DNA of 64,000 bases from IMG/VR virus record IMGVR_UViG_3300045988_046531. The stretch is one strand, 5' to 3'. A program made the position numbers and the translations under genes. How positions within the stretch are numbered: position 1 is the first letter of the stretch; every line of letters starts with the position of its first letter. Positions 2,666 through 51,702 of the stretch are shown in pieces. This DNA is from a virus. Under the pieces are notes generated by a model. It had not been told where the DNA came from, ran no database searches, and saw only the letters and a program-made list of their open reading frames with translations.

Positions 2666-2938
2666 TTAATTAGGTTTATTAATCTTATTTACTTCTTTAA
2701 TGATTGCCTCACAATTCTCTCTTGTTGTAGTTAAACAACCAAGTTGAATAATAGAACCGTCTTGAGTGATAGTCAGGTTCTTCTCTTCGATTGTTTCCCT
2801 ACATAGACCTCCTCTGATAATTCTTTTAATGAGTGGAAAGGGTAATATAGTATTCTTACAGAATATCATATTCTTGCCTTCCACATAAATGACATCGTAG
2901 CCGTCAATGCTACCTACTACCTTACTCATTCGATTCAA
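2666..2938 (-). CDS. hypothetical protein
   Basis: 90-aa ORF tightly packed downstream of the AAA+ gene on the same strand. Confidence 0.35.
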   Translation of the reverse strand: MNRMSKVVGSIDGYDVIYVEGKNMIFCKNTILPFPLIKRIIRGGLCRETIEEKNLTITQDGSIIQLGCLTTTRENCEAIIKEVNKINKPN

Positions 2939-2950
2939 CTATTAACTGTG

Positions 2951-3024
2951 TGGGCCCGGCCGGACTTGAACCGACAACCTCCTGATTATGAGTCAGTTTC
3001 TCTAACCGATTGAGATACGGGCCC
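2951..3024 (-). tRNA. tRNA-Met/fMet/Ile2 (CAU)
   Basis: Acceptor GGGCCCG/CGGGCCC, U8A9, D-stem TCTC/GAGA, anticodon loop CTCATAA, T-loop TTCAAGT. Confidence 0.7.
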
Positions 3025-3121
3025 CGAACGCCCATGTTTACTCACAATTAACAGTTCTCAAAGAGTAGTGTTGTTAGTGACTTCATGATAAATTCTATTT
3101 TAAACTGAAATAATTAGTAGT

Positions 3122-3202: not shown

Positions 3203-4270
3203 CTAAACTAACTTATCGAATATCATGGGCTGTATCGACATCCATAAATTTGCTAGCATTTCTCGCTCTGCGTCAGATGCTTCATCCCAATGTGATACGT
3301 ACAATTTCTCCGTTCGTTCATTCCTATAAGGAACCTTAAATGAACGGTTAATGCGTACACTGTGTGCGAATAGGTCTTTGTCGAAATCAATAGCCCTAAG
3401 CGTCTTCTGGAAATCGTTGAACTTATTATTAGGGTCATCGACATCCCTAACAGACATTCCAGAAGGAAACGGGCCGTTACCATGCCTTGTTATATAAGGA
3501 CGAGTTACATAACAAGTTTGGATTTCTTTACGTATACCTGCTTTCCGCAACAGCTCGTAAGCGTTTTGTGAAGTTGTATTAGACGGAGTACAATAAGGCA
3601 TTATGCCGAATCTTTGGTCAAGCAATATTCCCTGTGAACCTTCAAACACTAGGTTGTCATAGTTTAACAAGCAATCTTCATTAACCGTACCTGTATGTAA
3701 GAAATAAGCATGTGCTAACCTACACCAGTTGTCTAGGTCTATCGAAGGATATTTACTAGACATGTTGTAATAGTTATCCACTATGGCATTTAGTTTCTCA
3801 CGCAGTATGTAAGGATTCATACAATCTACAACTGTTAAGCTGTATCCTGCCTTAACTCGGTCCAAACAAGCTTTAAACCCTGTACCTACAGTACCATGTC
3901 GTAAGTTCTCTTCGTTATTAACTTGGGAATAGACATCGAAGGGAATTACAACTTGGCAGTGAGGGTGATACTGAACAATGGGATGAACTCCCATTTTAGC
4001 TAAGTCTGCACCCTCCAACATAGAGGTAATTGGGTCTACAGTACAGTATTCGGACCAGTACGTCGGCACTCCAAGTAAGGTTCCGCTGCCAAAGTTACTA
4101 AAGGTATGCATCATGTCTCCATGCTTTACAGTATGTCCTACTTGATGTCCACCACTAAACCTGACTACTAATACAGACTCTCGCTTACCTATGTACTTGT
4201 TACATAAGTTGTGAACTGTCTGTCCCTTACCTTCGTCTCCAAAGAATGTTCCTAATACAATACTAATCAT
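3203..4270 (-). CDS. adenylosuccinate synthetase (PurA) family protein, short form (355 aa), consistent with phage PurZ (N6-succino-2-amino-2'-deoxyadenylate synthase)
   Basis: N-terminal VLGTFFGDEGKGQ matches the PurA P-loop GxxWGDEGKGK; VTRPYITRHGNGPFPSG matches the PurA R-x-Y-x-TR-x-G-x-GPFP motif; the length is archaeal-PurA/PurZ-like rather than bacterial PurA (about 430 aa). Confidence 0.75.
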   Translation of the reverse strand: MISIVLGTFFGDEGKGQTVHNLCNKYIGKRESVLVVRFSGGHQVGHTVKHGDMMHTFSNFGSGTLLGVPTYWSEYCTVDPITSMLEGADLAKMGVHPIVQYHPHCQVVIPFDVYSQVNNEENLRHGTVGTGFKACLDRVKAGYSLTVVDCMNPYILREKLNAIVDNYYNMSSKYPSIDLDNWCRLAHAYFLHTGTVNEDCLLNYDNLVFEGSQGILLDQRFGIMPYCTPSNTTSQNAYELLRKAGIRKEIQTCYVTRPYITRHGNGPFPSGMSVRDVDDPNNKFNDFQKTLRAIDFDKDLFAHSVRINRSFKVPYRNERTEKLYVSHWDEASDAEREMLANLWMSIQPMIFDKLV

Positions 4271-6214: not shown

Positions 6215-6485
6215 TGTTAAATAGTCGTGAGTAGTTAATTGCAACTATGACAAAATTAAGATTAAAGTCAAAGACCAGCCTATTGCTATCTAGGGCAAAG
6301 TCAAAGGAATTTTGTAACTTCGCAATAGACTGACAGGGTTTGAATTAATAATACTTAATTATGCTGGAAATCGTCCCTGTATGAAATACAGAACACGATT
6401 AATTTGTCGACTAGAGTCTTTGATGCAATTCATACTACTCACGCAAAGCTATGTTAGAATCCAATGAGATTCAAGACTATAGCAC

Positions 6486-18844: not shown

Positions 18845-19185
18845 CTCTTTGTTTAAATTTATTGTTATGAGAGTCTTTCTTTATTCTAAACAATAAACAA
18901 GCGGCATTACGGCAATCGGACATACGTTAACCCGCTCGCCACTTACAGACCGTAATGCACACTTGACCAGGCAGGAAAGAGGTTTGCTTGGTTACCTGCC
19001 CCACAATATTGATTTGCATAGTGGGGCTACGAGGATTCTCTCTACTCGTGATGCTATAAATCGTCTTTTGACGCAAGCACAGGTTTCAACTCTTTAATAT
19101 AGCCTTTAAGTCACAGATGCATTCTAGACTACATCTGCTGGTTCTTCAGACCAAGTTTGCTACCACTACTCGTCAATAGTGGATT

Positions 19186-20662: not shown

Positions 20663-20711
20663 TTTAATAGTTCCAATTCAGCTAAAATTGATATTTAAAC
20701 GTTAATAATAG

Positions 20712-21254
20712 TGGACCTAGGCGGAGTCGAACCGCCGTCCAAACAACCCTCATTAATAAGATTACGTGTGTCTCTATTTTATTACATCAGCTGTTGAGTT
20801 CAGCATGTAGGTAGTTTTACTAGTCTTATCTTGGAACCAGGTAATTAGGCTGCAATAGCCAAACCAGTACACCAAAAGCTAATTTACAAACTACCAAACT
20901 TAAAGGTTCAAAAGCTGACGCTTCCAAACCTGGGCTGACCGAAGTCGCTCTTCCACCACTCCATTTACGTTGGAGAACGTTTCTATTTGTAACCCATAGA
21001 TAGGTAGTGGAGATTTCAGCTTTACTAACCTTTGGCTTTCAAGTTAAGTGGGCTGCTCTATACGCTTCTTCCCACACCTCTTCTGTTTCTAGGTCTCTCC
21101 AATTAACCCGACTTAGAGCTAAATTAATAGATAAGCCAGCAGCTTAGGCTGCCATTCTTACTTCAGTGTTTCCACTTAAATTTGTGTATCATTATTAAAG
21201 AGTTGGTACGAACTCTACACGTCTTACTAACTTGTAATCGCCTGTCAAAGCCAA
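20712..21254 (-). ncRNA. ssrA: tmRNA (SsrA), 543 nt, with candidate tag reading frame ...G-N-T-E-V-R-M-A-A-stop
   Basis: 5' end GGGCCTAGATTTGGCTTTGACAGGCG matches the E. coli tmRNA 5' end GGGGCTGATTCTGGATTCGACGGG. 3' end GGACGGCGGTTCGACTCCGCCTAGGTCCA matches GGACGCGGGTTCAACTCCCGCCAGCTCCACCA. Acceptor GGGCCTA/TAGGTCC keeps the G3-U70 alanine identity pair. An internal ORF ends GCA GCC TAA (Ala-Ala-stop) about 95 nt from the 5' end. The 650-nt region has no protein ORF. Confidence 0.75.
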
Positions 21255-21351
21255 ATCTAGGCCCATAGAACGGCACGATTATACTCTCGTGCCACATTGA
21301 GTGGCGTACCCATTATGGACTTGGCAGCTTACGAGTTATTTTTTGTTCCAT

Positions 21352-43605: not shown

Positions 43606-44432
43606 TGGCAACTAAGTTTCAACAAGGTGGGCAGGACGACCAAGAGTTGTTCTCTGCCTACCTTATTAAGTTATTTAAGCCTAAGTCTCAGCAGGAGTTT
43701 GAGGATACTATATCCAAACTCTCAGAGAGGGAAATTAATGAAATCTATAAACAATACAAGAGTATGGAGAATAATCAAACTATCATGGCTAAGATGGGAG
43801 CCAAAATTAACTACATTAGCAGATTGCAAGGTAAGTGTCCAGAAGGTTATGAGGTAGAGAGATTCATGGCTGGAGGATGTGTTAAATGTAGAAGGAAAGC
43901 AATGGCTGAAGGCAGTAAAGCTATGGACGTATTCAAAGATAAATGTGGAGGTAAAGCCAAGAGACGCATTAAGAAGAGCGAGAATGGTGATAAAATAGCA
44001 GTTAATAAGACTGATACTGTACACACCAGTAAGGGAGTATATAATGTTAGTAATAAGAAGCTCCCTTATAAGAAGATGTCCAAAGCAGATTACAAAGGAC
44101 TACCTTTAAAAGACAAAATGAAAGTTGATATGAAAGACCAGGCCAACGGCAGAGGTGCTAGCGGAGCAGGTGCAACTAGAGGTAGTAATATAGGTAAAAA
44201 GTTAAGCGGTGGCACTATTACTTCGTTCAAGTGCGGAGGAATGGCTAAGAAGAGAATTAAGAAGAATATGGGCGGAACTGTTAGCAATAAATGGAGTATT
44301 CCTAGTAAAGCTAGTGGTGATGCTATTAAACACATTAAAGGCGGACCAGGCTCGGCAGATAGCACTAGAGAAATGAAATTTAACGGATTTCAGAAGAAAG
44401 CACTAGCTGGTAAGCCTTATAAAAGCAAATAA
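43605..44432 (+). CDS. Lys/Gly-rich basic protein (possible DNA-binding or internal virion protein)
   Basis: 275 aa with repeated GGxAKKRIKK-like basic blocks. Confidence 0.4.
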   Translation: MATKFQQGGQDDQELFSAYLIKLFKPKSQQEFEDTISKLSEREINEIYKQYKSMENNQTIMAKMGAKINYISRLQGKCPEGYEVERFMAGGCVKCRRKAMAEGSKAMDVFKDKCGGKAKRRIKKSENGDKIAVNKTDTVHTSKGVYNVSNKKLPYKKMSKADYKGLPLKDKMKVDMKDQANGRGASGAGATRGSNIGKKLSGGTITSFKCGGMAKKRIKKNMGGTVSNKWSIPSKASGDAIKHIKGGPGSADSTREMKFNGFQKKALAGKPYKSK

Positions 44433-44434
44433 GT

Positions 44435-45010
44435 ATGAAAGTATTCCTATTTGATAATGGTACTAATTCAGTGATTGTGAATGAGCCAGAGGTTCTTCTT
44501 ATTAAGGAGTTCGCAGCTCTATGGACTAATGAAAGGAATAAGACCAAAGAAGACCCTACGGGAGTTTGCAAATCAAGAGCTTATAGAGAGCTTGTTTACA
44601 TATGGCTAATGTTAGATTGGGCATCTCCATACTCTGATTATACAGAACAAGAAAGGCATCAATCATGTCTTCAGGATGCTAATTTAAGTGAAGAGGAATG
44701 GGCAGACCCAATCTTCAGAGCCGCATGTAGGAAATATAGAGATATTCAAAACGAATCTAGAGCACTTAAACTTATTAAGTCTGCTCAAAGTGTAGTTGAT
44801 AGAATTACTGATTACTTTGACACCATAGATTTATCTGAAAGAGACCCAGTTACTAATAGACCTGTTTGGAAAGTGGCTGATGTAATGAAAGAAATGCAGT
44901 CAGTTTCTAAGGTTATAGAAGAACTTAAAACTCTTGAGTATATGTACAAGAAAGAGCAAGAGGAAGAGACTGGTATCAGAGGTGAAGGTAAGAAAGGACA
45001 TTTAGATTAA
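44435..45010 (+). CDS. hypothetical protein; terminase small subunit candidate by position only
   Basis: 191-aa ORF immediately upstream of terL exon 1. Confidence 0.3.
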   Translation: MKVFLFDNGTNSVIVNEPEVLLIKEFAALWTNERNKTKEDPTGVCKSRAYRELVYIWLMLDWASPYSDYTEQERHQSCLQDANLSEEEWADPIFRAACRKYRDIQNESRALKLIKSAQSVVDRITDYFDTIDLSERDPVTNRPVWKVADVMKEMQSVSKVIEELKTLEYMYKKEQEEETGIRGEGKKGHLD

Positions 45011-45012
45011 TT

Positions 45013-45600
45013 ATGGCTGGACGTGGCAGACCTAAGAAGAAAGTCGAAATTCCAGAAACAGTTCAAGAGTTAATACAGAGAGTAGAACCAGAGCTAATAG
45101 AAGCTGTTCAACATATAAATCCTGTCATAGAGGACAATTCAATTAAAACATCTAATGTTGAATGGGATGTATCATTAGATACCGAGATTAAGCATTTCGA
45201 CCCTACTCTATCTTATGAGCTGACTGGATATCGACCAGTGGATGAAGAAAGAGGATTGGATTTTAATCCAGAGTGGTTCACTGAAGCTAGACAGATTAAA
45301 CTAAGAAACGGTAAATACTGTGCTTATCCGGAGGGAACAAAGAAGTATAATGACTTTTGGGACGAAGAGGTTAGAAGATGTAATCGAGGATATGAATCAC
45401 ATGGGTATAGAATCACAGGTGATAATTACTTCTTCCTTAATTATTATAGGTTGAAAAATACTGATGTGTCTCAAGCTGGTGCTGGTCGTGAAACTACATT
45501 CCCTTCATTCTTTAGTAAGCAGTATGAGTACTTCCATTACATAGAAATGTGTGAGAAGTTGAAGAAGGATGTGTGCGCCCTTAAAGCTCGTGGAGTCGGT
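45013..45600 (+). CDS. terL: terminase large subunit, exon 1 (N-terminal region ending in the first half of Walker A, ...ALKARGVG)
   Basis: The ORF ends with RGVG; the next 3 nt (TGA at 45601) begin the inserted element. RGVG followed by KS at 46574 gives RGVGKS, like the T4 gp17 deviant Walker A RQLGKT. Confidence 0.5.
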
Positions 45601-46573
45601 TGACACAATAAACTAAAGCCGACTATAAATTCCGCAAAATCGGTGAAGACTAACGTGATTAATCACTTATTAAATTTAATATTATGACTAAGAAGGAACA
45701 ATTAAAATTTATTGAGGATAACTATCCCTTATACAACAATCATATATCTAACAGAAGAATAAGACATACATTCTTCGATACAATCGAAACTGAACTACAA
45801 GCTTATCTGCTTGGATTTTATGCCGCTGATGGCAGTATTGATGAGAAACGCAAAACCTTAAGAGTTCATTTGCAGTCTGGAGATTCTGAAATAGTGTACT
45901 TATTTAAAGATAGTATAAGTCCAGACGCTAGAACGTTTACCGTAGCACCACATATTGTAACTGGAAGAAACGGTATGAAAGTAAATGCCCATGCATCATT
46001 TGGAGTTGACATTACTAGTTCCAAATTATGTAATGCCTTAGTAGACTTAGGGATAGGATATAATAAAAGCGTAGCAGAACTCAAAATTCCAAGCATTCCT
46101 GAGGACCTTGTGAAACATTTCATCAGAGGTTATTTTGATGGAGATGGGTGTATTACTGGATGGTTAGCTACAGAGAAGGGTAAAGCTGACAGAGTTAGAT
46201 ATAAGTTTGATATATGTAGTAAAACAATTACTATGTTGTCTGATATACAGAAGGTTCTTTCTAAGAATGATATTAATGTAAATATTAATTATCTTAAACG
46301 TGATGATATGTATAGGATATCTACTTCATCTAAAAGCGAAGTGAGTAAACTATATCATTATCTATATAATGATGCTAATTTCTATTTATCAAGAAAGTTT
46401 AATAAGTTTAGTTACTATGTTAATACCGAGGTAAGTCAGCTCATCGCTGACCACCGTAACGCGCAGGAGGTGAACGTTAATGAGAGTAATAATCCTCCCA
46501 CGAGTGCGGAACATTCTATAAAAGAATGAATATGTGCGCTGACCTTATAGGAAACTATAAGAAGTATAGGATA
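45601..46573 (+). mobile_element. intron-like insertion carrying a LAGLIDADG homing endonuclease gene (probable group I intron); the 3' boundary is approximate (46573-46597)
   Basis: The last exon nucleotides GTCGGT (45595-45600) can pair with GCCGAC (45618-45623) with a terminal U-G, as in a group I P1 helix. About 30 nt upstream and 70 nt downstream of the HEG ORF are about 85 percent identical to the flanks of the second element at 48074-49036, which is more conserved than the two HEG proteins. Confidence 0.5.
45684..46529 (+). CDS. LAGLIDADG homing endonuclease (two-motif, single-chain type)
   Basis: YLLGFYAADGSI and FIRGYFDGDGCI motifs. Confidence 0.85.
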   Translation: MTKKEQLKFIEDNYPLYNNHISNRRIRHTFFDTIETELQAYLLGFYAADGSIDEKRKTLRVHLQSGDSEIVYLFKDSISPDARTFTVAPHIVTGRNGMKVNAHASFGVDITSSKLCNALVDLGIGYNKSVAELKIPSIPEDLVKHFIRGYFDGDGCITGWLATEKGKADRVRYKFDICSKTITMLSDIQKVLSKNDINVNINYLKRDDMYRISTSSKSEVSKLYHYLYNDANFYLSRKFNKFSYYVNTEVSQLIADHRNAQEVNVNESNNPPTSAEHSIKE

Positions 46574-48076
46574 AAAAGCCTATACGGTAACAAAGTGTTT
46601 AGTGAAATTGCAGCATCTTTAGGAGTTAGGTTATATACAACTGTTAGAGGTTCACATACAGTATATGTAGCATTTACCGAGAAGTTCGTTAGTGACGTGC
46701 TTCGTAAATGCTGGGAACAACTTGAATATTTAAATGCTGATACAGAAGGTGGTATGAGACATCTAAGACAGAAGTATAATTCTGATATGCATAAGAGAGC
46801 TTCTCTTCTTACTAAGGATAGAGAAGAATTTGGATTCATGTCAGATATTATTGGCTTCGTAGTAGATGTTCCTCGTAAGCTACGTGGAGACCGTGTGGAT
46901 AGATTGTTCTTTGAAGAATCTGGTTCTAACCCAATCCTAGTAAAGACTTACTTACAGAGTACGGCTCTTGTAGAAATTCTAGGTAATAAGTTTGGAACTA
47001 GATTTGTGTGGGGAACAGGTGGAGACCAGGGACCTGCACTTGACGGACTTAGTAAGATGTTTTATAATCCAGCTGGTTATAATTTCTTACCTTACAAACA
47101 CAACCATACTAAAGACGGGTCTTATGCTTTTACCTCATTCTTTATACCTGCTTACACATTTGTAGCAGCAAATGGATATGTAGACGATAGAGGGGTTACT
47201 AATACTGCGAAGGCTAAGAAATTCTATTTAGACCAAAGAGAGGCTCTACTAGCTAACCCGAAGGAGCATTTAATTGCATGTGCAGAGTTCTGTTTTACTC
47301 CTGATGATGCTTTGGCTCTTGAAGGAGATAATCAGTTCAATACTGTATTGTTAAGTGAGCAACTTGCTAATATCAAACTACATAAACTAGGACCACATAT
47401 TGATGTAGGTCAGTTAGAGTATAACTTCACTAACAACCAGCACACAGAAGAAGCAATTGACAGTGTAAGATTTGTTAGTAACCCCAAAGGTAAAGTGAAG
47501 ATACTTGAACATCCGATTAAAGGAGAGCATGGAGCTGTGCCTAAAAATCTATATGTTGCTGGTATTGACGGCATTGATATGGGTGGTGAGGACACTTCTG
47601 ATAAGACTCAAGACCCTTCTGATTTCTGTGTAGTAGTTAAGAAGAGAGCCTATGGGTTAGATGAACCTAAAATAGTGTGCTATTATAGGGACAGACCTAA
47701 GACTTTACGTGAAGCACATATGACATGTCTTAAGATATTGCAGTATTACGATTGCCAAGCAGTTCTTGAATCTACTAGAATGTCTACTCTGCAATTCTTT
47801 AGAGAGAAACATAAAGAGAATAGACATTTGATGAGAAGACCTAGAGCTACTCAATCTGACATACAAGGAGGTCGTAGTAAACAATTCGGAGCTCCTGCTA
47901 CTGAAGTAGTAATTAGGCATCAATTAGATTTAATAGCTCAACATATAGAAGATTATTGTCATAATATATGGTTTGAAGAAATTCTAGAAGAAGCAATTAA
48001 ATACAGTTATGAAAACAAACGTAAGTTTGATATTATAGCTGCATGGGGGATAGAATGTTGTCCCTCCTCATGGTAA
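46574..48076 (+). CDS. terL: terminase large subunit, exon 2 (rest of ATPase domain with Walker B LFFEE, plus RNaseH-like nuclease domain); the ORF track starts it at 46526 but the first 48 nt belong to the conserved element flank
   Basis: VDRLFFEESG (hhhhDE Walker B) about 105 aa after the KS start; LYVAGIDGIDMGGEDTSDKTQDPSDFCVVVKKR resembles a terminase nuclease-domain acidic motif. Confidence 0.6.
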   Translation, partial: KSLYGNKVFSEIAASLGVRLYTTVRGSHTVYVAFTEKFVSDVLRKCWEQLEYLNADTEGGMRHLRQKYNSDMHKRASLLTKDREEFGFMSDIIGFVVDVPRKLRGDRVDRLFFEESGSNPILVKTYLQSTALVEILGNKFGTRFVWGTGGDQGPALDGLSKMFYNPAGYNFLPYKHNHTKDGSYAFTSFFIPAYTFVAANGYVDDRGVTNTAKAKKFYLDQREALLANPKEHLIACAEFCFTPDDALALEGDNQFNTVLLSEQLANIKLHKLGPHIDVGQLEYNFTNNQHTEEAIDSVRFVSNPKGKVKILEHPIKGEHGAVPKNLYVAGIDGIDMGGEDTSDKTQDPSDFCVVVKKRAYGLDEPKIVCYYRDRPKTLREAHMTCLKILQYYDCQAVLESTRMSTLQFFREKHKENRHLMRRPRATQSDIQGGRSKQFGAPATEVVIRHQLDLIAQHIEDYCHNIWFEEILEEAIKYSYENKRKFDIIAAWGIECCPSSW

Positions 48077-49036
48077 CATGAGGCAATAAAATAATCCCGA
48101 AATATCGGTGAAGACTAACGTAACTTAAATAAAATGATTTATCATGGATGATTTACTAAACACAATATGCCCATTAGAGAAGATGGGTAAAGGAATAAAG
48201 AATATCAGACACAGATTCTTCCATTCTATAGAAACTGAAATACAAGCCTATTTATTAGGATTTATAGCAGCAGATGGTAGCATTGACGAGAAACGTAATG
48301 CATTATCAATTCATGTTAGTGCTAAAGATATAGAAATACCACAGCTGTTTCAGAAATGGGTAAGTCCAGAGAGTAGTATAGAATCTTATGTTGGTAACAC
48401 TTTCAACTCTAGAGGTAAAACGTACACTTCTAAAGATTCCGTTAGAATTAATATTACCAGTAAGCAATTAATTTCTGATTTAAAGAATCTGGGAATTACG
48501 CAAGCTAAGACGTGGAGAGAGTTACACATTCCTAACATAGATGAGTCTTTAATAAAACATTTCATCAGAGGTTATTTTGATGGAGATGGATGTTTCTCTA
48601 TGTCGGTTAGAAAGCCTAATGCTAAGAACAGAGAGAAGAATTACAGAGTATCCGCTCAGGTAGAGATATACTGTAAAAGAGATGAAATATTGAAGGATGT
48701 CAGAGCATTTATATTAAAAGAACTGGGAGTAGAAATGAGAATATATTACATAGATAGAGATGATATGTTTAAAATACGTACCAGCAAAAGTGATGATATA
48801 AAGTCACTGTTCTCATATATATATGATGGCTCTGTCTATCTGAATAGGAAGTTTAGTAAGTTTAGTTACTATGTTAATACCGAGGTAAGTCAGATTATAT
48901 CTGATACCGTAACGCATAGAGAGTGAAATAATCTCTCCAAGAGTTTGGGACATCCTAATAAGGATGAATATGTATGCTGAACTAATAGGAAACTATTAGA
49001 GCAATAGGATAAAAAGCCTATTGGGTAACATATTGG
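48074..49036 (+). mobile_element. second, homologous intron-like or free-standing HEG element; boundaries approximate
   Basis: The 5' flank cccgaaatatcggtgaagactaacgt and the 3' flank gaatatgtatgctgaactaataggaaactattagagcaataggataaaaagcctattgggtaaca match the element-1 flanks; a GUAA-looped hairpin CCTCATG/CATGAGG spans the junction. Confidence 0.45.
48144..48926 (+). CDS. LAGLIDADG homing endonuclease (paralog of 45684-46529)
   Basis: YLLGFIAADGSI and FIRGYFDGDGCF motifs. Confidence 0.85.
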   Translation: MDDLLNTICPLEKMGKGIKNIRHRFFHSIETEIQAYLLGFIAADGSIDEKRNALSIHVSAKDIEIPQLFQKWVSPESSIESYVGNTFNSRGKTYTSKDSVRINITSKQLISDLKNLGITQAKTWRELHIPNIDESLIKHFIRGYFDGDGCFSMSVRKPNAKNREKNYRVSAQVEIYCKRDEILKDVRAFILKELGVEMRIYYIDRDDMFKIRTSKSDDIKSLFSYIYDGSVYLNRKFSKFSYYVNTEVSQIISDTVTHRE

Positions 49037-49060
49037 GCAGAACTAGGAGACGAGGAATTA

Positions 49061-49270
49061 ATGGGGGTAGTTCCTAAAGAAATGGACAGTCCTAATAACA
49101 AACTAAGACCTTTCGGTTATTGGGTTGACGAAAGAGGAATTAGACATAAAGGAGTTATTCCAGAGAAACAACAGATAGTACCTAAGTTTAATTTATGGCC
49201 TACACAATACGATGACCCTACAAGAATTAGAAGTAGCAATCAGAGATTTATTCAAACAGATTTATCATAA
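49061..49270 (+). CDS. hypothetical protein or terL C-terminal exon; the frame is open from about 49022
   Basis: 69-aa ORF; the upstream in-frame extension contains no stop back to the element boundary. Confidence 0.3.
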   Translation: MGVVPKEMDSPNNKLRPFGYWVDERGIRHKGVIPEKQQIVPKFNLWPTQYDDPTRIRSSNQRFIQTDLS

Positions 49271-49523
49271 AGAATATGTGGCTAAATTAAAGCTAGAAGA
49301 GCTACAAACTGCCGAGGGGACACATAGAGGTTATAAGTTAACACTTGGCATGAATAATATAGACAAGCCACTTATTATATCGTTTGAAGGTGGTGAAGTA
49401 GCATATCTTAAATTTCTTAGACAGGAATTAAGAGATAGAAGATTAGGCGACACACATTATTTCCTAGGATATAAACAATATAACGGATTAGAGAGTTGTA
49501 ATGAGTGCACAGAACAGGAGTGA
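49212..49523 (+). CDS. hypothetical protein
   Basis: 103-aa ORF overlapping the previous one in another frame; its stop overlaps the next gene start. Confidence 0.35.
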   Translation: MTLQELEVAIRDLFKQIYHKEYVAKLKLEELQTAEGTHRGYKLTLGMNNIDKPLIISFEGGEVAYLKFLRQELRDRRLGDTHYFLGYKQYNGLESCNECTEQE

Positions 49524-51702
49524 TGAGTACTTAATGGAGCATATTGATAAGGCAGTATCAGAATTAGTATTTCCTAAGTACAAATTACAGAAAGCATATA
49601 ATTATTATAATGGATATAGAGATGCCGAACAATATAGGTATCTAGAAGAGAATTTTGGAATAGGTAATCCTACTTCTATAGAATTTACTCCTCTTATCAG
49701 GAAGCATGTTGATGCTTTACTTGGAGAATACCTAGGTACTCCATTACTGCCTAAAGTGTCATGCAAGGATAAAGAAACTATATCTAAGATATCTAGAGAT
49801 AAGGAATTACAAATTAATAAGGAAGTATATCAATACTTACAACAACACCTTAATAATCAGATACTAGCGTTCTTAGGAGGACAAGAAGTAACTGATAAAG
49901 CCGTAGAAGCTCAACTTAATAAGTTAGTAGAAGATATTAATAATAGCTTTGTTAGTGAATATGAAATAGCTGCACAGAATGTTGTTGAGTATATAATCCA
50001 ATCTAGAGATATTAACTTACTTACTAAGTTGAAGAACCTGTTACTTGACTTACTAGTAACTGGCATGAGCTTTTACCAGGTTCATCCTAGTAGGAAGAGA
50101 ACTAATATAGAAATAGAGGTATTAGACCCACGTAATGTATTCGTTGATAGAAATCCAGAATCTGTATATGTTAGAGATAGCTACAGAGTAGTTATTAGAC
50201 GTTGGTTAACTAAGCAACAAATACTTAATAAATATGGTCCTCAATTAGATGCAAGTAGTATCAATGAATTAGAGGAGATGTTCGAGGGATATTACGATAG
50301 TAGTTATATATATGTACGCTCCATGAGCAATCAGGCTACTGGAGCTCCCATTACAGACGGACTTGAAGCAGGTAAAGAGGTAATACCTGGATTCCCCACC
50401 GACTACTATGAGACTTATAATTATAAGTTAATACCTGTGTTTGAAGTTGAGTGGATTGATGTTGATAAAGAAGGAGAAGATTATGTAGAGAATAGATATG
50501 AAGGAGTCAAAATCGGAGAATCTATTTACATTCTTACTGGTAAATCTCCTGATGTAGTTAGAACTAAAGATAATCCTACACACTGTGGATTGTCAGTTAA
50601 TGGTTTGTTCTTTGTAAACAGAAGTAATGAACCATATTCACTTGTGCTTGCATGTTCACATCTTCAAGACAAGTACGATTTGATTACTTTCTTTAGGGAC
50701 AATGTAATTGCTAATAGTGGTACTAGTGGAGACTGGGTTGACTTTAGTATGCTACCTATGGCTCTTGGTGATGATTTGACTGAAAGATTGCAGAAATTCA
50801 TTGCCTATAAGAAGACTGGTGTGGCTCCTATTGATACTTCACAAGAAGGTAGGGCATTTAATAACAATACTTCTTTTGCTGGATTCGATGACTTGTTAAA
50901 AGCTGATACTATTCAGGCATTTAATATGGCGTTGCAGATGTTAGAAGAGCAGACATCATCTATTACTGGAGTGTTTAGAGAGAGATTAAATGGAATAGAA
51001 ACTAGGGATGCTGTTAGTAATGTTAAGGCAGGTATGAGAAACTCTTATATCATTACTAAATCTTACTATCAACAAATGGATACTTTGGCAGAGGATATTC
51101 TGATTGATTCTCTTAATTGTGCTAAGAAGGTATGGAAACATAAACCACTTACTGGAACTTTAGTGCTAGGTGACAAACTACAGAAAGTATTTACTGCTCT
51201 CCCTGAACATTTTACTTTTACTGACTATGATATTCATGTAATAGCTAGTAGTAGAATTATGGAGGAAATGCAGAACATGCAACAGTTAATGATTGAGTTC
51301 ATCAAGAGTGGTCAACTAGACCCAGACATAGCTATGGAGTGCATGACTGCCAGAAGTATGACTGAACTCAAATCTAAATTGTCTAAAGCATTTCAAAAGA
51401 GAAGAGAAGAAACTCAGAACACTGCGCAGATGCAACAACAGAACGAAGAGCTACAGAAGCAACTTCAAAAGGCGGAACAAGAGAAAGAGCAGCTTAATAA
51501 TAAGATTGCATCTCTTAATGAAGCTAAGATTGCTATTGAAAGACAAAAGGTTGAATATGACTATGAGATTGGAATTATTAAGGCTAATGCTGATAGAGAT
51601 TATAAGCAGAGTACTTCTGACAATGACACCAAAAGAACAGATATTGAGATAGCCCAATTGTACGATGGGAATCAGCAGAATAACGAAGTGAAGAACGTAT
51701 AA
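49501..51702 (+). CDS. putative portal protein (by size and position after terL; C-terminal coiled coil)
   Basis: 733 aa; no diagnostic motif recognised. Confidence 0.4.
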   Translation: MSAQNRSDEYLMEHIDKAVSELVFPKYKLQKAYNYYNGYRDAEQYRYLEENFGIGNPTSIEFTPLIRKHVDALLGEYLGTPLLPKVSCKDKETISKISRDKELQINKEVYQYLQQHLNNQILAFLGGQEVTDKAVEAQLNKLVEDINNSFVSEYEIAAQNVVEYIIQSRDINLLTKLKNLLLDLLVTGMSFYQVHPSRKRTNIEIEVLDPRNVFVDRNPESVYVRDSYRVVIRRWLTKQQILNKYGPQLDASSINELEEMFEGYYDSSYIYVRSMSNQATGAPITDGLEAGKEVIPGFPTDYYETYNYKLIPVFEVEWIDVDKEGEDYVENRYEGVKIGESIYILTGKSPDVVRTKDNPTHCGLSVNGLFFVNRSNEPYSLVLACSHLQDKYDLITFFRDNVIANSGTSGDWVDFSMLPMALGDDLTERLQKFIAYKKTGVAPIDTSQEGRAFNNNTSFAGFDDLLKADTIQAFNMALQMLEEQTSSITGVFRERLNGIETRDAVSNVKAGMRNSYIITKSYYQQMDTLAEDILIDSLNCAKKVWKHKPLTGTLVLGDKLQKVFTALPEHFTFTDYDIHVIASSRIMEEMQNMQQLMIEFIKSGQLDPDIAMECMTARSMTELKSKLSKAFQKRREETQNTAQMQQQNEELQKQLQKAEQEKEQLNNKIASLNEAKIAIERQKVEYDYEIGIIKANADRDYKQSTSDNDTKRTDIEIAQLYDGNQQNNEVKNV

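Follow-up and report, generated by a model that had tools for sequence, protein, structure and literature searches.

The window analysed here is a 64,000-nucleotide (nt) stretch of viral DNA (IMG/VR record IMGVR_UViG_3300045988_046531) in which terL, the gene for the large terminase subunit, appears as a run of separate open reading frames (ORFs). On the plus strand, to which all terL, intron and endonuclease coordinates below refer, frames of 196 amino acids (aa; 45013-45603), 281 aa (45684-46529), 516 aa (46526-48076) and 260 aa (48144-48926) follow one another, with a further short open frame ending at 49270. The second and fourth of these are homing endonuclease genes (HEG 1 and HEG 2), each embedded in an element, and the element around HEG 2 is the subject of this study. 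An initial annotation, made from the sequence, had placed it at 48074-49523, had noted that its flanks resemble those of the first element more closely than the endonuclease genes resemble each other, and had read these flanks as functional RNA of the kind found in intron cores. Our analysis leads us to conclude, with a probability of roughly 93%, that elements 1 and 2 are paralogous group I introns that split the terL of a crAss-like gut phage into three exons; the figure covers element 2 (48052-49035) as a mobile terL group I intron and a paralogue of intron 1.

Exons of terL and the intron-less allele

Both intron junctions are fixed to the base by alignment to MT835470.1, a relative from human faeces that we found by a megablast search against phage records. 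It is 95-98% identical to the window, lacks both elements and matches in three pieces (window 44001-45599, 46604-48051 and 49040-50500) that are collinear with one uninterrupted ORF of 758 aa. Across the first junction it reads GTC GGT | TTT AGT (VG|FS, VG|FSEI), and across the second GGG AT | G GCA (G-M-A; AWGM|CELG). In the window, exon 1 (45013-45600) encodes aa 1-196, ending ...KARGVG, and is collinear with the uninterrupted terL of MT835470.1; exon 2 (46598-48051) encodes aa 197-681; and exon 3 (49036-49270) encodes aa 682-758 plus the stop codon, with the AUG of codon 682 split as AU|G. Joined, the three segments give 758 aa, 736 of which (97%) are identical to the MT835470.1 ORF, so that removal of the introns restores an intact host frame. 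Exon 1 matches the PHROG terminase large subunit family phrog_6681 (E = 8e-70). The spliced protein is a large terminase by the same match and is about 30% identical to the TerL of crAss-like phages.

Intron 1 (45601-46597; 997 nt) is absent from MT835470.1 exactly between GGT and TTT. Intron 2 (48052-49035; 984 nt) is missing both in MT835470.1 and in five relatives with intron 1 only (L030, L062, L107, L113 and L118; L numbers designate the loci fetched for comparison), in all of which exons 2 and 3 are unbroken. Around the second insertion site, the intron-less allele of the MT835470.1 type reads ...GCATGGGGTATGTGCGAACTAGG... in the target region. Intron 2 starts 22 nt ahead of the apparent terL stop codon, an in-frame TAA (48074-48076) that ends the 516-aa ORF, and the first 24 codons of that ORF, counted from its start at 46526, are intron sequence. 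Both this start and this stop are artefacts of intron sequence. The initial annotation had already taken the first codons of the 516-aa ORF for flank; their frame, MNMCADLIGNYKKYRI, is indeed intron sequence, and the element 2 copy of it stops at TAG after 11 codons, as had been described.

Whether a third terL exon exists at about 49022-49270 had been left open. It does exist, with the approximate start corrected to 49036, and tblastn of TerL against all fetched loci identifies 49036-49270 as the conserved TerL C-terminus in every relative. Element 2 had further been put at the very end of the terminase frame; 78 more terL codons follow it in exon 3, and the element itself runs from 48052 to 49035. 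In the same tblastn comparison no relative has a terL that ends at 48073 ahead of a separate gene, and every one of them reads through.

Ribozyme cores around the endonuclease genes

Both HEGs encode double-motif LAGLIDADG proteins. HEG 1 (45684-46529; 281 aa) scores 38.5 bits against Pfam LAGLIDADG_3 and 26.5 bits against LAGLIDADG_1, both above cut-off, and matches phrog_4645 with E = 4e-43. HEG 2 (48144-48926; 260 aa), whose motifs read LLGFIAADGSI and IRGYFDGDGCF, scores 53.2 bits (cut-off 22.5) and 34.4 bits (above cut-off), respectively, and matches phrog_4645 with E = 4e-40. Weak matches link the proteins to solved I-AabMI and I-OnuI-type enzymes. The two are 45% identical over 247 aa (BLASTP E = 2e-66; 39.5% in a global alignment), and the DNA of the ORF bodies is 60% identical by pairwise counts. 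The flanks are more alike, as the initial annotation had seen: in a MAFFT alignment, an upstream block of 34 nt is 85% identical (29/34) and holds the exact 18-mer ATCGGTGAAGACTAACGT at 45639-45656 and 48104-48121, and the final 72 nt of the introns are 83% identical (60/72). The conserved 3' block, estimated earlier at about 70 nt, proved longer, since it begins inside the 3' ends of both HEGs (46395 and 48849 onward, about 60-120 nt in); the stretch 46406-46435 is 100% identical between the copies. This similarity is far beyond chance, with R1, a covariance model of the 3' block, scoring 209 bits on intron 1 and 180 bits on intron 2 (E about 1e-58 and 1e-50).

The conserved flanks are the two halves of a group I ribozyme around each HEG. 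The upstream block supplies the 5' strands of the paired regions P3 and P4, and the downstream block supplies P4', P6, P7, P7.1, P3', P8, P7', P9 and P9.1; both are conserved because the two flanks base-pair with each other over the intervening ORF, which P5 encloses in both introns. In intron 2, P1 (48045-48066) pairs exon GGGGGAU (48045-48051) with the internal guide GUCCCUC (48060-48066), with U48051.G48060 at the 5' splice site. Intron 1 has its P1 at 45595-45600 with 45618-45623 (GUCGGU/GCCGAC), also with a U.G at the splice site, and a perfect 6-bp P10 between the guide at 45612-45617 and exon 2 at 46598-46603 (UUUAGU/ACUAAA). P2 of intron 2 (48066-48083; CCUCAUG-GUAA-CAUGAGG) is the GUAA-capped hairpin that had been pointed out over the stop codon, and its GNRA loop holds the TAA (48074-48076) ending the apparent ORF. 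Intron 1 is without P2; GNRA-capped P2 hairpins with differing stems lie at the same position in the relatives L014, L004, L094, L072 and L069.

Within the core of intron 2, P3 joins 48095-48100 to 48945-48950 (UCCCGA/UUGGGA; intron 1, UUCCGC/GCGGAA; the relative L003, UCGGGC/GCCCGA), and P4 joins 48105-48109 to 48879-48883 (UCGGU/ACCGA, the same in intron 1), with AAUA as J3/4. P6 pairs 48884-48886 with 48906-48908 (GGU/ACC in both introns) and is extended by P6a at 48889-48905 (GUCAGAU/AUCUGAU; intron 1, GUCAGC/GCUGAC). P7, formed by 48914-48918 and 48973-48977 (GCAUA/UAUGC; intron 1, GCGCA/UGCGC), encloses P7.1 at 48919-48937 (GAGAG/CUCUC; intron 1, GGAGG/CCUCC), the 3' strand of P3, and P8 at 48951-48966 (CAUCCU/AGGAUG; intron 1, CAUUCU/AGAAUG). 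P9 follows at 48982-48999 (CUAAUAG-GAAA-CUAUUAG; intron 1, CUUAUAG-GAAA-CUAUAAG) and P9.1 at 49003-49022 (AAUAGG/CCUAUU), the latter corresponding to the TATAGG/CCTATA hairpin reported earlier, which is present in intron 1 at 46565-46584. A 3' tail then leads to the terminal omegaG, at 49035 in intron 2 and 46597 in intron 1. Between the two introns, P3, P6a, P7, P8, P9 and P9.1 all contain compensatory changes. The covarying hairpin P7.1 sits between P7 and P3'; extra helices P7.1/P7.2 at this place characterise subgroup IA (IA2-like phage introns) in the Michel-Westhof classification, and by the position of P7.1 the introns may be IA-like. We initially read CGGUG/CACCG as P3 and mistook a 3-bp CCG/CGG hairpin for P2; both assignments were given up once the ORF-less L003 had made clear that strands of the UUCCGC/GCGGAA type covary as P3 and that UCGGU/ACCGA forms P4.

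Covariation across the family carries this structure well beyond the two copies. A 15-mer from the core, used as a probe, returned at least 120 IMG/VR loci, and R1 found 114 matches in 100 sources, most of them above 100 bits. Over these matches (91 distinct sequences), 97.8% of cells pair, versus 68% when shuffled and 32-47% when slid, and double changes occur in 34 of the 37 core pairs, including every pair of helices 1 and 2 (the P4'/P6/P6a region). This alignment was fitted to R1, which favours the structure; the margin is nevertheless very large. The long-range P3, which is not part of R1 and was scored with a custom script, is complementary at 6/6 positions in 55 of 62 distinct instances (30 different strand sequences; shuffled mean, 3.7 of 6), and this holds with strands anywhere from 12 nt to 1181 nt apart. 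RNAalifold applied to five sequences finds P6, P6a, P7, P7.1, P9 and P9.1, and the 3' core of intron 2 folded alone recovers P6-P9.1 (z = -4.8). The suggestion that the flanks are intron core RNA was therefore right: the covariance search yields a complete group I core with strong covariation.

The coding and structural sequences overlap at the 3' ends of the HEGs, the last ~119 nt of HEG 1 with P5' through P8 and the last ~62 nt of HEG 2 with P5', P4', P6, P7 and P7.1. HEG 1 has a 21-aa C-terminal tail past ...HRNA (46461-46529) that is due to a compensatory change from U-A to C-G in P7: the TAG stop used by most orthologues becomes CAG, and HEG 1 then runs to a UGA in P8. A conserved dual-coding role for this tail was considered and rejected, as most orthologues end at the TAG inside P7.

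Several observations speak against the intron reading or complicate it. An Rfam scan of 44000-51000 gave no group I match to the window copies, and scans of the two 3' halves alone likewise gave none; the generic model misses these copies because the HEG insert and the divergence of the family defeat it. Even ORF-less orthologues stay under the RF00028 gathering threshold of 50 bits, with 36.1 bits (E = 8e-8) for L028, at the site of intron 1, in a short-stretch scan, and 26.9 bits (E = 6.6e-5) for L003; whole-locus scans of L028 and L069 returned nothing at E <= 0.1. P10 of intron 2 is weak, with about 4 bp of which two are G.U. Because the HEG ORFs extend 62-119 nt into the core, translation might interfere with folding and vice versa. 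Compared with its orthologues in L067 and L069 (GGU|AUG), intron 2 has its 5' junction (GGG AU|G) displaced by 2 nt in the 3' direction (window 48045-48052 and 49030-49038, L067 7586/8561, L069 1968/2295), and the guides differ to match; the shift may reflect intron sliding or independent insertion. Finally, splicing is a prediction from the sequence.

On the other side, the RF00028 alignments of L028 and L003 place P3, P4, P6, P8 and P9 in agreement with our assignments and align the segment of J8/7 and the P7 3' strand to the Rfam family consensus, and the family member L052 reaches 66.9 bits with RF00028, above threshold (R1, 128 bits). We regard group I membership as established in all but the Rfam cut-off and biochemistry, because core covariation, the RF00028 matches, likeness to the I-BasI intron, the splice-site U.G, omegaG, P10 and the exact restoration of the frame all point to it.

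Occupancy of terL insertion sites and competing explanations

A tblastn comparison of TerL with the fetched loci located three recurrent insertion sites in the terL of this clade, namely A (aa 196/197), B (aa 337/338) and C (aa 681/682). None is occupied in L001; the window and L087 are filled at A and C; L067 and L069 at C only; several loci at B only; and L004, L041, L070, L072 and L031 at A and B. In the five loci filled at A only, listed above, the protein of exons 2-3 is 99-100% identical to that of L001 and unbroken over site C. Site C is optional among close relatives, being empty in L001 and these five loci and filled in the window and L087. Introns without an ORF are found at site A in L028 (244 nt) and at site C in L069 (326 nt), and the HEG is decayed in L047 and L033. 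The relatives show every stage of the homing cycle: a vacant site, an intron that lacks an ORF, one with an intact HEG and one whose HEG has decayed. Where intron-plus and intron-minus alleles differ in their exons, the differences gather within 6 nt of both junctions; one is a change of serine codon from TCC to AGT, which provides the P10 partner. Such clustering would be expected from P1/P10 matching and co-conversion during homing.

Individual relatives show further variation. In L004 (MT835539.1; 1574-2639 and 3075-4177), the TerL is 44% identical and in-frame TAG occurs both in exons and in an intron HEG, as in a recoded phage; in its site-A orthologous intron the base ahead of the 5' splice site seems to be C instead of U, and its site-B intron, of the same family, has a LAGLIDADG ORF that lies upstream of P3 and reads through P3-P6. 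The site-A intron of L084 (5512-6549) has a core uninterrupted through P7.1 with the ORF further downstream, and this locus also holds a partial second core copy (R1, 47 bits at 6320-6480). In L003 (bajarodcaudo virus 2), an ORF-less intron of the same family (2815-3060) interrupts a plus-strand gene that is missing from the annotation; in its place the record has two small minus-strand ORFs, which are probably spurious.

From these data we infer the following course of events at the second site. The RNA on either side of HEG 2 would fold back across the ~780-nt ORF, with P3 and P4 joining the flanks and P6, P7, P7.1, P8, P9 and P9.1 forming within the downstream block, to build the group I catalytic core. 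An external guanosine would attack after U48051, whose U.G pair with the internal guide keeps it in P1; the released end of exon 2 would next attack after omegaG 49035, and ligation would join AU to G, giving ...AAWG-M-AELGDEEL... within a TerL of 758 aa. When phages co-infect, the LAGLIDADG enzyme from the P5 loop of one most likely cleaves site C in terL alleles that lack the intron, after which repair would copy in the intron together with a few adjoining exon bases. The flanks would be more conserved than the ORF because ribozyme folding constrains them, the two endonucleases having presumably diverged toward two different target sites.

The most substantial rival accepts a true group I intron and disputes its autonomy: splicing would need the intron's own LAGLIDADG protein as a maturase, or a host factor. 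Some Bastillevirinae phage introns are indeed spliced in vivo but not in vitro (PMC11878797), LAGLIDADG ORFs in the introns of crAss-like phages are given the label endonuclease/maturase in the main text of Yutin et al. (PMC7886860), the core is a compact one, and P2 is missing from intron 1. Yet every core helix is present and covaries, and the persistence of ORF-less members at the same sites (L028, L069, L031 and L072) argues against an obligatory maturase encoded in cis, so we judge protein dependence unlikely. A quite different proposal is a free-standing HEG between two genes, with terL ending at 48076, 49061-49270 an independent ORF, and the flanks regulatory or target sequences. HEG 2 does have its own start and stop, and an in-frame stop does follow exon 2 at 48074-48076. 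However, the terL of relatives runs through the site and ends in the C-terminus that exon 3 encodes, and the two flanks form base pairs with one another and show the covariation of a group I core. This proposal is already contradicted by the present evidence and deserves scarcely any weight.

Two further explanations concern the origin of the likeness and the type of insertion. The copies lie 2.4 kb apart in one gene and share blocks of 100% identity, as could result from recent duplication or gene conversion within one genome rather than from RNA function. We looked for compensatory differences between them, however, and the six helices named above have them; the same helices also covary over the 91 distinct sequences, which come from many contigs, and we consider duplication or conversion as the source of the likeness very improbable. 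An intein would have precedents, as other crAss-like phage TerLs carry inteins according to the main text of Yutin et al. (PMC7886860) and an in-frame insertion is present elsewhere in the terL of cr53_1. Here, by contrast, stops follow both exon ends (45601-45603 and 48074-48076), the HEGs have their own starts, and a Pfam search finds no Hint domain. As for a group II intron, a reverse transcriptase ORF is lacking, and the Rfam scan of 44000-51000 has no group II match. We give these two insertion types next to no credence and retain mobile group I introns as the explanation of both elements.

Related systems and the breadth of the family

Several related introns in one phage are a familiar arrangement, as in Twort orf142 and in the T4 genes td, nrdB and nrdD. 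The likeness lies in paralogous IA-type cores at different sites that are optional among relatives and have HEGs looped out from peripheral helices; the cores, host genes and HEG families are different. The present finding is a further member of a known group, as such introns have already been reported in the terL genes of crAss-like and Bacillus phages, and our contribution is to map its anatomy exactly and to supply a working model of the family. In Bacillus phages, group I introns are known from TerL and DNA polymerase genes of Bastillevirinae and SPO1-like phages. Some Bastillevirinae TerL genes hold two or three group I introns whose splicing was shown experimentally in a 2025 study, which also confirmed splicing of the Bastille version of the I-BasI DNA polymerase intron (PMC11878797). 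For crAss-like phages, the main text of Yutin et al. 2021 describes core genes, especially in the Zeta group, that are split by several group I introns with LAGLIDADG and other HEGs; there the introns were identified by endonuclease protein domains, MCP and PolB serve as illustrations, and TerL is said typically to have inteins in the Delta group (PMC7886860). The window phage resembles the Zeta group in being a gut phage with a crAss-type TerL (~30% identity) and an intron-split core gene with LAGLIDADG endonucleases, and in having relatives with recoded stop codons (L004). Its related contigs measure 129-144 kb, just under the 145-192 kb given there for Zeta (PMC7886860), which is a likeness only and not a Zeta assignment. 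That main text does not give the RNA core, the precise junctions or the three insertion sites in terL that we map here (PMC7886860).

A close counterpart of the ribozyme itself is the I-BasI intron in DNA polymerase genes of Wphvirus Bacillus phages. Over 54 nt, the P9-P9.1 3' domain of intron 1 shares 92.6% identity with it, the 3' splice site lies at the same distance, and both have the P7.1 hairpin and a CACGAG motif before P3'. The rest of the core is much less alike (R1, 57 bits on Eyuki), the host gene and phage lineage differ, and the HEG there is an HNH nickase in P8 whereas here it is a LAGLIDADG gene in P5. In Bacillus phage Eyuki (L002; 3056-3222), DNA polymerase exon 2 is annotated as starting at 3223, ~167 nt past the likely 3' splice site, which follows CGATAACATAG at about 3055; an open, polymerase-like frame runs on from that splice site. 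The 92.6% identical 3' domain had suggested a recent transfer from Bacillus phages, an idea that was dropped, as the core motif is widespread in bacterial genomes. The motif AATACCGAGGTAA...CCGTAACGC occurs in the genomes of 54 bacterial species (loci L126-L179), mostly Bacillota with a few Bacteroidota, and shared ancestry within a broad family is therefore enough. This distribution makes the ribozyme family a broad one. One Treponema contig has three copies of the core motif within 4 kb.

Contig IMGVR_UViG_3300045988_023747 (loci L054 and L088) is distinct from the window: exact-substring tests gave no match, and L054 is only 82-95% identical to it. Elsewhere in the window, the region 49212-49523, which the initial annotation had included in element 2, is a separate small plus-strand gene of 103 aa outside the intron. 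It lies between terL and the portal gene, overlapping the end of the former and the start of the latter, is kept down to 31% identity across the clade, and has no Pfam or PHROG match. The minus strand carries an array of ~22 tRNA genes (850-21900), among them one with a CTA anticodon of the amber-suppressor type (14794-14866); in-frame TAG is present in relatives such as L004, and there is none in the terL and portal genes of the window. The same strand also holds a transfer-messenger RNA (tmRNA) at 20709-21264 (RF00023, 86 bits, E = 4.5e-32; ARAGORN made no tmRNA call) and a RAGATH-34 RNA motif at 19076-19182 (RF03103, 120.6 bits against a threshold of 60.7).

For annotation, these results mean that terL is one 758-aa gene in three exons rather than separate genes of 196, 516 and 69 aa, and R1, which recovers the family in nearly all loci examined, could help to repair gene calls in intron-dense gut phages, where the generic Rfam model mostly fails. 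The locus is a textbook case of ribozyme flanks under stronger constraint than the selfish endonuclease that they carry, and as such opens no new question. Across the family, ORFs are placed in different positions: LAGLIDADG genes in P5 or upstream of P3, an ORF downstream of P7.1, and the HNH gene of I-BasI in P8 in Bacillus phages. We see about even odds that one compact ribozyme chassis has spread to the three terL sites of this uncultured gut phage clade, with different endonuclease genes colonising different loops independently. If that is true, the clade would offer a natural time series of the gain, decay and retargeting of introns and their HEGs.

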